From the IMG/VR virus record IMGVR_UViG_3300018488_000078: 11,494 bases of DNA; one strand, given 5' to 3'. Positions within the stretch are counted from its first letter, which is position 1, and each line of letters starts with the position of its first letter. Positions 2,470 through 6,613 of this stretch are shown piece after piece. The position numbers and the translations under genes were made by a program. The notes under the pieces are model-generated. The model was not told the DNA's origin and did no database searches. It was given only the letters and a program-made list of their open reading frames with translations. The stretch is from a virus. Its lineage: Duplodnaviria; Heunggongvirae; Uroviricota; Caudoviricetes.

Positions 2470-2708
2470 GCTGGTGGATGCTTTTTCTATGCATATATGC
2501 ACAGTTTTAGTGGGCGTTAATGTCGATATAGGGATCCCCATATCGAGATTGGATACCTGGCTTTTTTCCGGTTAACCTTTAATCAGGCTGGTGGGCTTTA
2601 CCTGTTTTGTATGAGTGGTCATCATGACCATGTCATAACAAAAACCCCATATTCGTGGTTTTTCTGTGTCGGGCTATTCTGTCGTTGCTGTGCTGATTTG
2701 GCTGGTGG
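2470..2708 (+). repeat. Cluster of three Chi octamers (5'-GCTGGTGG-3') at 2470-2477, 2587-2594 and 2701-2708, same strand, spaced 117 and 114 bp
   Basis: Octamers read directly from the sequence; the second and third share the 12-mer GGCTGGTGGGCT. They lie in non-coding DNA between ORF93 and the truncated B gene. Confidence 0.85.
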
Positions 2709-2763
2709 GCTGAATCATCATTACGGCGATGCAGCTATGTAGACGTTCCGGCCTCCTCAAATT

Positions 2764-2925
2764 GAGGATTGTGGAAGAATCAATGGGTTAGTCTTACTTT
2801 CCCGACATCCCCCAATGGGGGTTTTCGAAACAATCAATAGCTTAGGCTTACTTCCCCGATTTCCTGCATTGCAGGTTTTCGAAATAATCAATGGGTTAGG
2901 CCATCGTGCAATTTTGCACTTTGCC
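2764..2925. repeat. Three tandem units of about 54 bp, each carrying a perfect IHF consensus (WATCAANNNNTTR) at 2768-2780, 2822-2834 and 2876-2888
   Basis: AATCAATGGGTTA, AATCAATAGCTTA and AATCAATGGGTTA sit exactly 54 bp apart; units 2 and 3 also share GGTTTTCGAAA immediately upstream. A palindrome CCTCAAATTGAGG (2745-2757) precedes the array. Confidence 0.7.
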
Positions 2926-3149
2926 AGCCAGCGCAATGTCGCGTTATCAGTCCTCGGATGTGAGGGATGTAGCCAGCTTTTCCCCCAGTGGGGGATATCC
3001 AGCACCGACGGCTTAACTGTGCGTGCCAGCACAAGGTAGCCTTGAACTACTTACTGCATCCCATCTTACAGGCCGTGCCTTCCTGCTTAACTTTTTGCAA
3101 TGCAACAAGTCAGCCAGCGCAATTTTGCGTTATCGGGAATATCAGCAAG

Positions 3150-3431
3150 TTACCGCCGCAATCGTTCCGGCTTCTTCCACTGGTAAGTATTTTTCGCGCT
3201 CTCCCTCCGTTGTTGAGAACGGCGACGATATGCCAGCAACTCAAGGACTCTTGTTCGTATGTTGCGCATATCCACGCCGTTAAGCTCAATACCGTCACGG
3301 CGCATCACCTCAGCCACTACACGCACATAATTATCTGCGGTCACGCTGTCCGGCTGCGTGGCCTGTTCGTCATGCTGCTTGCTGATTCCACAAGCACGGC
3401 GGATTAATCGCAGTATTTCGGATTCAGTCAT
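3150..3431 (-). CDS. Hypothetical protein, 93 aa, in the position where a large terminase gene would follow the small terminase
   Basis: ATG at 3429-3431 starts 11 nt after the TerS stop; weak Shine-Dalgarno, so translation may be coupled. Product MTESEILRLIRRACGISKQHDEQATQPDSVTADNYV... has no recognisable domain by eye. It is far too short to be a large terminase. Confidence 0.45.
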   Translation of the reverse strand: MTESEILRLIRRACGISKQHDEQATQPDSVTADNYVRVVAEVMRRDGIELNGVDMRNIRTRVLELLAYRRRSQQRRESAKNTYQWKKPERLRR

Positions 3432-3442
3432 AGCGTACTACG

Positions 3443-3985
3443 TTACTTATCTTTATTCGGCTGCAACTTATCCGGTACGTTTCCGGCAGTTTCCATCAGA
3501 TAATCGGACAGCATCAGCGGTATGTTTTCGTCAAGTTTTGCGCATGCGTTACAGGCTCTGATAACTTCTTTTTTCAGTCCATCCAGCATAGACGGCTTCA
3601 TGTCGGGAAACTTCCTTGTCATGGCAAGCGGCAGGCTGTCCATGATTGAAGAAATCTGACTCGCCAATTTTGAAAGCACGTATATACAAAACGCTGTATC
3701 AATAACGTCGCCGCGTTCGCGCTCGTTTTTAAGCTCCTGCGCCTCTGCCTGTGCTGTCAGCAATCTGATCCTGACTCGTAGGAGTTCATCATCATCAATC
3801 TCGCCTTTGTCGTCTGTAATCTGGTTAATTGCATTGCTAACCCGATTGTCTATTACGCTGGCAACATCATAAAACGCCTCGCGGCCTTTACGTTCAACGG
3901 GAGTCACTCCCCACTTGTCGAACGCTGTCGCACTTACACGGCAGCTTTGCGCCATGTTTTTTTTGTTCATCAGGTGCGATTTCAT
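3443..3985 (-). CDS. Terminase small subunit, Nu1-like, with divergent N-terminal (DNA-binding) region
   Basis: C-terminal two thirds align by eye to lambda Nu1: RLLTAQAEAQELKNERERGDVIDTAFCIYVLSKLASQISSIMDSLPLAMTRKFPDMK versus lambda RLTRAQADAQELKNARDSAEVVETAFCTFVLSRIAGEIASILDGLPLSVQRRFPELE. The N-terminal ~70 residues differ. Start chosen at ATG 3983-3985 (GGGGA 6 nt upstream); GTG at 3995-3997 and ATGs at 3968-3970 and 3953-3955 are alternatives. Confidence 0.85.
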   Translation of the reverse strand: MKSHLMNKKNMAQSCRVSATAFDKWGVTPVERKGREAFYDVASVIDNRVSNAINQITDDKGEIDDDELLRVRIRLLTAQAEAQELKNERERGDVIDTAFCIYVLSKLASQISSIMDSLPLAMTRKFPDMKPSMLDGLKKEVIRACNACAKLDENIPLMLSDYLMETAGNVPDKLQPNKDK

Positions 3986-4096
3986 CAATATCCCCACTTA
4001 AGTAATGTTTCAGGTTGGTGTATTGGCTTTATCTTTTCCTTTTTATTCATAGAGATAGAGCGAACAACAAAACCACCACCAGCACCCGAAAAAGGC

Positions 4097-4160
4097 TCAT
4101 AAATAGCGAAAACCCGCGAGGTCGCCGCCCCGTAGCCTACCGGATCACCGGAAAGGACCC
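4097..4160 (-). other. Lambda-type cos site: cosQ-like segment (4141-4160) and cosN with 12-nt cohesive-end sequence GGGCGGCGACCT (4119-4130); cosB side divergent
   Basis: Minus strand reads GGGTCCTTTCCGGTGATCCGGTAGGCTACG-GGGCGGCGACCT-CGCGGGTTTTCGCTATTTATGA. The cohesive-end 12-mer and flanking cosN sequence match the lambda left end as I recall it, and the upstream segment matches the lambda right-end/cosQ region except for a few bases. Below 4097 the sequence departs from lambda cosB. Confidence 0.85.
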
Positions 4161-6190: not shown

Positions 6191-6613
6191 TTAAAACGGT
6201 ATATTATCGCCGTACGGATCATCATTCCCCGACTGTTGTTTTGCCCTGTTCAGTGCGTCAGTGGCCTGCCCCTGCTGGCCTTTTTTGCCGCCCGGTCGCG
6301 CCGTTCGCGCACTGATTACGCTGTCTGCGATAACCTGCCAGCCCCGCCGCGTTTCGCCGTTCTGGCCTGTCCACTGGCTTACCTGCATGTTACCCGCCAC
6401 GCTCACCAGTTCGCCTTTGTGGTGTTTTGCCAGTGCGTCGGCCTGTCTGCCAAACGCCAGGACGGATAACCACATCGTCGCCGTTCCGTCATCTGCCTGG
6501 CTGCACGGCAGGGGAACCGCCATACTCGCCATCGCCATTTGTGTCCCTTTGCTGGTGGTCTTTAACTGCGGGTCAGCCACCAGCCGCCCGTAAGCCGCTA
6601 TCTGTGCTGTCAT
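6191..6613 (-). CDS. ssb: Single-stranded DNA-binding protein (SSB) with acidic C-terminal tail ending DNIPF
   Basis: ATG 6611-6613 overlaps the upstream stop (ATGA). Glycine/glutamine-rich linker and C-terminal ...DDPYGDNIPF resemble the E. coli SSB tip ...DDDIPF. Confidence 0.8.
   Translation of the reverse strand: MTAQIAAYGRLVADPQLKTTSKGTQMAMASMAVPLPCSQADDGTATMWLSVLAFGRQADALAKHHKGELVSVAGNMQVSQWTGQNGETRRGWQVIADSVISARTARPGGKKGQQGQATDALNRAKQQSGNDDPYGDNIPF

Follow-up and report, generated by a model that had tools for sequence, protein, structure and literature searches.

A lambdoid prophage with a phage satellite in its portal gene

The window, by which we mean the whole stretch of 11,494 nucleotides analyzed here, is a composite. 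Positions 1-2340 hold head genes of a lambdoid prophage, namely an S49 peptidase gene (gpC-like) and a C-terminal fragment of the portal gene (lambda B), and from position 2341 the window runs into an integrase-bearing island of 10,895 bp, which is inserted in the portal gene and splits it into two fragments. When lambda B was aligned with the window junction and with the integrase-side junction of EC93, an att identity block, ATCGCCTT, was found at 2333-2340. The island encodes a Nu1-like small terminase, AlpA, gpD-like and gpE-like head proteins, SSB, a D5/P4-type primase, and DUF4222, Icd-like and BRO-N proteins, all its genes being on the minus strand with the exception of a YlcI-like gene (plus strand). 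Since TerL, portal, tail and lysis genes are absent from it, the island is a satellite. The composite nature of the window had been missed in the initial annotation: the cos site and the ten Chi octamers described below are those of the PICI satellite inside the prophage portal gene, not those of the lambda-like phage.

Judging from gene content and insertion site, the island is one of the helper-embedded PICIs in the sense of Mageeney et al. 2023 (PMC10111431), located in lambda gene B. Its size is within the 10-20 kb range, it carries int, alpA, a primase gene and an ori downstream of pri, and the portal gene is found in two fragments around the att core. The ori is made of nine GGTAGAGGG-type iterons in both orientations (6967-7193; nine versus 1.3 expected) just downstream of the primase gene, a placement that matches the one described for PICIs (PMC10111431). 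A doubled TGTATTGC motif of the attP arm type lies on the minus strand at 2415-2422 and 2427-2434, ~88 nt from the core centre; such a doubled motif, at ~81 bp from the att centre, is characteristic of helper-embedded PICIs (PMC10111431). A second copy would be expected beyond the window. The experiments on helper-dependent excision, packaging and transfer are on relatives only (PMC10111431, PMC6092414).

The cos end previously noted at 4119-4130 is a genuine lambda-type cosN (GGGCGGCGACCT, minus strand, the exact reverse complement of lambda cosN), and it is the satellite's. Satellite and helper are nearly identical and co-oriented along ~70 nt from cosQ to cosN, while cosB has diverged, and the helper's own co-oriented cosN is 12.75 kb away from that of the satellite. 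In the EC93 locus (L001), where the satellite occupies 10341-21235, the two co-oriented cosN are at 12119-12130 and 24884-24895. Prophage and satellite together form a composite of ~55.4 kb, which is believed to be above the packaging capacity of the lambda head, and the distance from satellite cos to helper cos, ~42.7 kb, corresponds to a roughly lambda-sized unit. The satellite terS gene (3443-3997, minus strand) encodes a protein that matches Pfam PF07471 (E=3.5e-24) at residues 70-152. Its match to lambda Nu1 is confined to this C-terminal half (aligned to Nu1 80-162), and the N-terminal DNA-binding part differs. Since this part and cosB are both different, the helper terminase appears to be redirected to the satellite's own cosB.

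We searched the island proteins for Gam, Abc, Bet, Exo and Erf using RefSeq, Pfam and PHROG, and found none; SSB was the sole function related to recombination. An unrecognised anti-RecBCD protein could be among the small uncharacterised island proteins. A program-made ORF of 356 aa (9867-10937, minus strand) runs through the Icd-like gene, the YlcI-like gene, which has the opposite orientation, and the beginning of BRO-N; RefSeq does not annotate this ORF, which is probably not a gene.

Chi octamers in the island

Our search with the exact Chi octamer, 5'-GCTGGTGG-3', identified ten perfect matches in the window, all of them inside the 10.9 kb island. The element is found in E. coli chromosomes, that is, in a host whose RecBCD reads this octamer, as in enteric bacteria. 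Exact matching bore out the three plus-strand copies that had drawn attention to the region, at 2470, 2587 and 2701, with start-to-start gaps of 117 and 114 nt. The count of "at least nine" copies was short by one: all nine listed were recovered, and the copy at 9505 had been overlooked. Seven Chi are thus found outside the array. One is in the satellite's diverged cosB (4076-4083, minus strand), at the lambda R3 position and 35 nt from cosN. Two in opposite orientation, at 6551 (plus) and 6577 (minus), form a pair spanning 6551-6584 in the SSB gene, and two are in the primase gene, on its sense strand (7907-7914, minus) and its antisense strand (8168-8175, plus). The last two are in a small ORF at 9497-9688 (9505-9512, minus) and in the intergenic region between the YlcI-like and BRO-N genes (10807-10814, minus).

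In lambda orientation, five Chi are on the top strand and five on the bottom strand; seven of the ten are oriented so as to be active from the cos end nearer to them, and the remaining three are not. RecBCD recognises Chi when arriving from its 3' side, from a real double-strand end, and the plus-strand Chi below 4119 do face cosN in this way. The orientation initially proposed for the cluster was therefore right: plus-strand Chi are those read by RecBCD going from 4119 to lower coordinates. The Chi in cosB is in the orientation inactive for RecBCD entering that end, and is found in part of the family only. We also considered a replichore-like polarity of Chi, with either the island ori or the chromosome as reference, and rejected it: orientations alternate in blocks, and the array opposes the local chromosomal polarity.

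Chi was the most frequent octamer in the window and in the island alike, and again the top octamer when the coding parts of the island were taken by themselves. Dinucleotide-preserving shuffles (n=200) had a mean of 0.41 Chi and a maximum of 3, and none of the 200 reached ten. We consider, nevertheless, that the proper null is the Chi density of E. coli itself rather than random sequence. The K-12 genome has 1008 Chi in 4.64 Mb (PMC12315714), and a 200 kb sample of the chromosome of the host strain, EC93, had 0.19 Chi/kb, with at most two per 240 bp and at most six per 11.5 kb. At host density 2.2-2.5 Chi are expected per window, and the probability of ten or more is ~1e-4 to 3e-4. The enrichment claimed at the outset is thus real, but it was measured against too low a baseline of chance: relative to E. 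coli's own density the excess is 4-5 fold, not more than 20 fold. A cluster of three Chi within 240 bp is expected by Poisson about once per genome at host density, and for this reason the triple cluster alone is weak evidence.

The tail between the attP arm and terS

The array lies in an unannotated tail of 810 bp that extends from the attP arm to terS, and is located 130-368 nt inside the island end; the left cohesive end is 1.41-1.65 kb away. RefSeq has no feature from the portal fragment to a 93-aa ORF at 3150-3431, annotated as a hypothetical protein. Of two program-made ORFs, the one at 2757-3032, which runs over DNA repeats, is unannotated and had no Pfam or PHROG matches, and the one at 2611-2742 had no PHROG matches; an Rfam search of the tail found no RNA family. 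As far as these searches can tell, the cluster is non-coding, as had been stated. DNA folding of 2440-2760 was unremarkable (z = -1.65). We found no support for a possible small hydrophobic peptide near the third Chi, with a frame that aligned in the O157 and Nissle tails: the frame is disrupted in the window copy, and the ORF at 2611-2742 is the one devoid of PHROG matches.

The first Chi (2470-2477), 130 nt from the att core, is part of a terminator-like hairpin (2455-2482), where it lies in the loop and 3' arm, and its context, catccgtcatRaaGCTGGTGGatg, was found again in many relatives. The second (2587-2594) is inside a block of ~45 nt (TTTTTTCCGGTTAAC..TTAATCAGGCTGGTGGGYTTTAC) that is kept in 10 distinct relatives and in ~1,100 E. 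coli genomes; since the whole block is conserved, selection on this octamer is inseparable from selection on the block. The third (2701-2708) has in common with the second a 12-mer, GGCTGGTGGGCT. The equivalent of this third Chi is absent from an otherwise near-identical relative (L013), in which the other two are present; this shows turnover within the array.

Between the first and second Chi there is a conserved palindrome of 32 nt (AATGTCGATATAGGGA/TCCCCATATCGAGATT; 2519-2550), with GGATCC at its centre. In many relatives (L021, L032-L034, L040, L043, L048, L079 and L003) a palindrome of this type (CGATATGGGGATCCCCATATCG) is bracketed by a facing pair of Chi, GCTGGTGG and CCACCAGC, separated by 39-47 nt. 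Such a facing pair would protect both flanks of a break at the palindrome, cleavage there being hypothetical.

Further into the island we found three tandem repeats of 54 bp (2748-2909), each with a short palindrome. The stems differ (CCTCAAATTGAGG, CCCCCAATGGGGG and CCTGCATTGCAGG), each followed by a conserved TTTTCGAAAYAATCAAT tail, and the changes among them look compensatory; a fourth palindrome is located at ~2983 (2981-2999). A stretch of 50 nt in the first repeat (2747-2796) has 92-96% identity to roi/anti-repressor regions of Stx-converting and other lambdoid phages. We ruled out that these repeats are a second origin element similar to P4 crr, the ori iterons being confined to 6967-7193.

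Recurrence of Chi among relatives

Using the island TerS, we gathered relatives from IMG/VR, and obtained 80 loci, 54 of which include the tail, corresponding to 26 distinct tails at 97% identity. A TerS protein search of genome contigs gave no confirmed relatives. None of the 26 distinct tails is without a Chi in the 1.3 kb next to the terS stop, and 60 Chi were counted altogether. In these tails Chi ranks first among octamers when all copies are counted; when the tails that have a copy are counted (26 of 26), it is tied with one other octamer. The cluster-averaged density is ~1 Chi/kb along the island, peaks at 2.7/kb in the last 500 bp and drops to ~0 past the island end. This peak is mostly on the bottom strand (the plus strand of the window), while the family mean per island is ~6 top-strand and ~5 bottom-strand Chi. 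Three relatives in complete genomes, with densities of 0.8-1.35 Chi/kb, are integrated beside phoQ, narP and a truncated autoinducer-2 transporter gene.

We then asked how many of these Chi share a sequence context, merging any two with either flank in common. At least eight contexts sharing neither flank were found, against 0.4-2 expected under Markov models of order 1-3, and the three Chi of the window represent three different contexts. All contexts have in common the octamer and one base only. An order-4 Markov model trained on the tails showed no excess of Chi, this model being fitted to the Chi copies themselves. As read from these sequence comparisons, the Chi feature is real and non-random at the family level, as well as mechanistically sensible.

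Some rearrangements in the family have their joints at Chi. Locus L028 equals L027 minus a precise segment of 527 bp, with the loss of the conserved 93-aa ORF, and the joint consists of the Chi octamer plus a few common bases. When the window was compared to the Nissle-type tail, homology stopped inside a Chi of the relative, and the window's own third Chi was found 9 nt further on. In several other loci, the sequence to the left of Chi is that of one context and the sequence to the right that of another. In a breakpoint test, endpoints were enriched 2.1-fold near Chi versus 0-1.65 fold for control octamers, the endpoints being non-independent. These observations are suggestive of rearrangements falling at Chi.

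Helper prophage and Chi-free elements

The prophage that carries the island encodes Gam, Bet and Exo (lambda exonuclease), and has no Chi in 44,554 bp. The same holds for a lambdoid prophage of CFT073 (Gam+/Bet+/Exo+; no Chi in 42.6 kb), and satellite P4 (11.6 kb) has none either. Two earlier expectations are answered by these counts: the absence of Chi noted for wild-type lambda extends to the surrounding lambdoid prophage (0 in 44.6 kb), and the suggested comparison with the host chromosome and prophages did not reveal any density comparable to that of the island (0.19/kb in the chromosome sample, zero in the two Gam+ prophages).

The EC93 helper has its major capsid gene (L001 6838-7863) annotated as a pseudogene, with an internal stop; the embedded satellite has an intact gpE-like capsid gene plus a gpD-like decoration gene. 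The type I-E CRISPR-Cas system of EC93 is complete and has two arrays (L085, chromosome 1,022,485-1,040,358).

Chi accumulation as a probable protection against RecBCD

In lambdoid phages, Gam and a recombinase go together with Chi avoidance, and the lack of both with Chi accumulation (PMC3784561, PMC8791490, PMC12315714). The island fits this rule. On balance, we think it probable that the Chi array, together with ~1 Chi/kb along a cos satellite devoid of a recognisable inhibitor or recombinase, makes host RecBCD treat the satellite's linear DNA as "self". RecBCD would load at the left cohesive end of the satellite, on the cosB/terS side, and would degrade ~1.4 kb before encountering, one after another, three Chi in the correct orientation. 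The efficiency of recognition is 20-40% for a single Chi and 60-80% for a triple array (PMC8386832), so that the chance of the switch could rise from roughly the former to the latter, which provides a direct rationale for a triple array. Degradation would then be attenuated and RecA loaded ahead of attP, int and the replication module. The minus-strand Chi, of which the first is at 6577, 2.4 kb in, would have the same role for the right end. Chi is known to act solely through RecBCD (PMC12315714). The identity of the Chi, their orientation, enrichment and recurrence in the family, and the contrast with the helper are observed; that RecBCD attacks the satellite ends in vivo, and that selection favoured Chi for this reason, is what we infer.

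Several points speak against such protection of the ends. During satellite replication and packaging the helper Gam should inhibit RecBCD. Moreover, cos-ended DNA normally circularises fast after injection, and lambda does without Chi. Across the island the two strands have equal numbers of Chi, only seven of ten facing the nearer cos end, and the top-strand Chi that relatives have near the left end are unexplained by end protection. Given that helper Gam would blind RecBCD in lytic growth, the benefit would most likely come on arrival of the satellite in a new cell, which is free of Gam because the resident prophage is repressed there, or with Gam-less helpers.

A broader proposal, which we make tentatively and hold to be rather unlikely in its full form, is that the tail is a dedicated, modular RecBCD-control cassette of the family, with Chi in both orientations that often face each other on the two sides of the conserved palindrome. 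It would switch RecBCD arriving from either side, and would be the recombination hotspot at which satellites exchange Chi-bounded modules. It would also enable a Chi-rich parasite to live in a Chi-free helper that encodes Gam, the satellite relying on RecBCD on arrival in a new cell, the one stage at which helper Gam is absent.

Alternative explanations

Chi could instead stimulate RecBCD/RecA recombination, or recombination-dependent replication, between satellite copies, yielding multimers for the lambda-type terminase. We regard this as a possibility to be taken seriously, if an unlikely one. Such a role has been proposed for Chi-rich lambdoid phages without a Rec module, e.g. LLS (PMC12315714). 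Consistently, Gram-negative PICIs are cos-packaged from concatemers, and EcCICFT073, in phage-sized heads, needs multimers (PMC6092414, PMC10111431). The island, with SSB and primase and without recombinase, agrees with this model, which would be served by Chi in both orientations. The same model has likewise been proposed for P1 and for lambda red gam chi+. However, the helper gives Gam, turning RecBCD off, and Bet/Exo just when concatemers are needed, and the satellite's own capsid and decoration genes make monomer-sized heads possible. In addition, the LLS class has its Chi on the top strand at the right end, whereas the densest array is here on the bottom strand near the left end. The benefit from multimers is mechanistically close to end protection, and is weakened by the same argument about Gam.

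That the Chi are incidental seems doubtful to us. They would hitch-hike in conserved cis modules (hairpins, protein-binding sites, perhaps small ORFs or RNAs) or reflect an E. coli-like oligonucleotide bias, and shuffling would spread the copies. This could apply to the second Chi, in a ~45 nt block conserved throughout, and to the first, in a hairpin; many palindromes adjoin Chi, and the order-4 model, though fitted to Chi copies, showed no excess. But an incidental origin is difficult to reconcile with at least eight contexts that have no common flank and agree in the octamer and one base alone, with the first rank of Chi among octamers in the island's coding parts too, and with a tail that gave no Pfam, PHROG or Rfam matches. 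The Chi density also exceeds that of the host chromosome by a factor of 5-12, which amelioration cannot explain, and the adjacent DNA of the Gam+ prophage, in the same genome, has no Chi.

One may further reason that the array mainly curbs CRISPR spacer acquisition, or other end-dependent defences, by truncating degradation, so that fewer prespacers are produced and the satellite mimics self. RecBCD products are known to feed adaptation (review PMC8791490), and EC93 has its complete type I-E locus and two arrays, but this would be a consequence of the main mechanism rather than an alternative to it, and we consider it very improbable as the principal function. Chance clustering without biological meaning, to which the Poisson expectation of about one such cluster per genome might appeal, is effectively refuted by the family analysis, with ten Chi in 10.9 kb (P ~1e-4), Chi in 26 of 26 relatives and none outside the island.

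Phage satellites have a major part in the transfer of genes among enteric bacteria, and how they cope with RecBCD is a question so far unaddressed. The locus offers a natural experiment in which a Gam+/Red+ helper with no Chi in 44.6 kb can be set against a satellite with ten in 10.9 kb. If Chi is functional in the latter, helper and satellite take opposite strategies against the same host nuclease, the RecBCD status of donor and recipient should shape the spread of satellites, and the triple array would be a natural counterpart of the engineered arrays that stabilise linear DNA.

Comparison with known systems

The island resembles helper-embedded PICIs (PMC10111431) and Gram-negative PICIs in general (Fillol-Salom et al. 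2018, PMC6092414) in its size, in the order int, alpA, pri, ori, capsid gene and cos, in its insertion within a lambdoid late gene (here B/portal), with which it is co-oriented, and in the doubled TGTATTGC motif. It differs in having a Nu1-like TerS, which 11capE and EcCICFT073 lack. Neither of the two papers speaks of Chi or RecBCD or describes the Chi-dense tail; a literature search for PICIs together with Chi found no paper linking the two. P4 is likewise an 11.6 kb cos-packaged satellite of E. coli, with a P4/D5-type primase and repeats next to attP, but it has no Chi, so the Chi strategy is not general among satellites.

The array is similar to the triple Chi used by the Leach laboratory with palindrome-induced double-strand breaks (PMC8386832): in both cases three co-oriented Chi are found within a short stretch, a few kb from a defined DNA end, and relatives of the satellite show a layout (Chi, palindrome, inverted Chi) like that of engineered palindrome-Chi systems. 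Unlike the Leach array, that of the satellite is natural, with a spacing of 114-117 nt, unrelated flanks and a palindrome of ~30 bp, and is not a synthetic tandem.

The closest parallel for the use of Chi is the LLS class of phages (PMC12315714; Bobay et al. 2013, PMC3784561), which also have a lambda-type cos, infect E. coli, lack Gam and a recombinase, and have Chi as their most frequent octamer. Their Gam+ relatives are Chi-free, as is the satellite's helper, and reliance on RecBCD is likely to be common to both. The island too has no recognised anti-RecBCD gene or recombinase module, with several small ORFs uncharacterised. LLS has 23 Chi, 20 of them on the top strand (20:3), with a cluster at the right end, and a density of 0.54/kb. 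The satellite, at ~0.9-1/kb, has no top-strand bias (5:5; ~6 and ~5 in the family), and its densest cluster is on the bottom strand, in non-coding DNA 1.4-1.9 kb from the left end. Given these differences in strand bias and right-end clustering, we do not place the satellite in the LLS class. Furthermore, LLS-class members are autonomous lambdoid phages, which the island, a 10.9 kb satellite inside a Gam+ helper, is not, and the papers that describe them (PMC12315714, PMC3784561) do not analyze satellites. By analogy, the satellite may nonetheless work like a member of this class. Most likely, it is a further case of what is known for lambdoid phages, namely the accumulation of Chi in a cos element that lacks anti-RecBCD genes, and extends this strategy to satellites.
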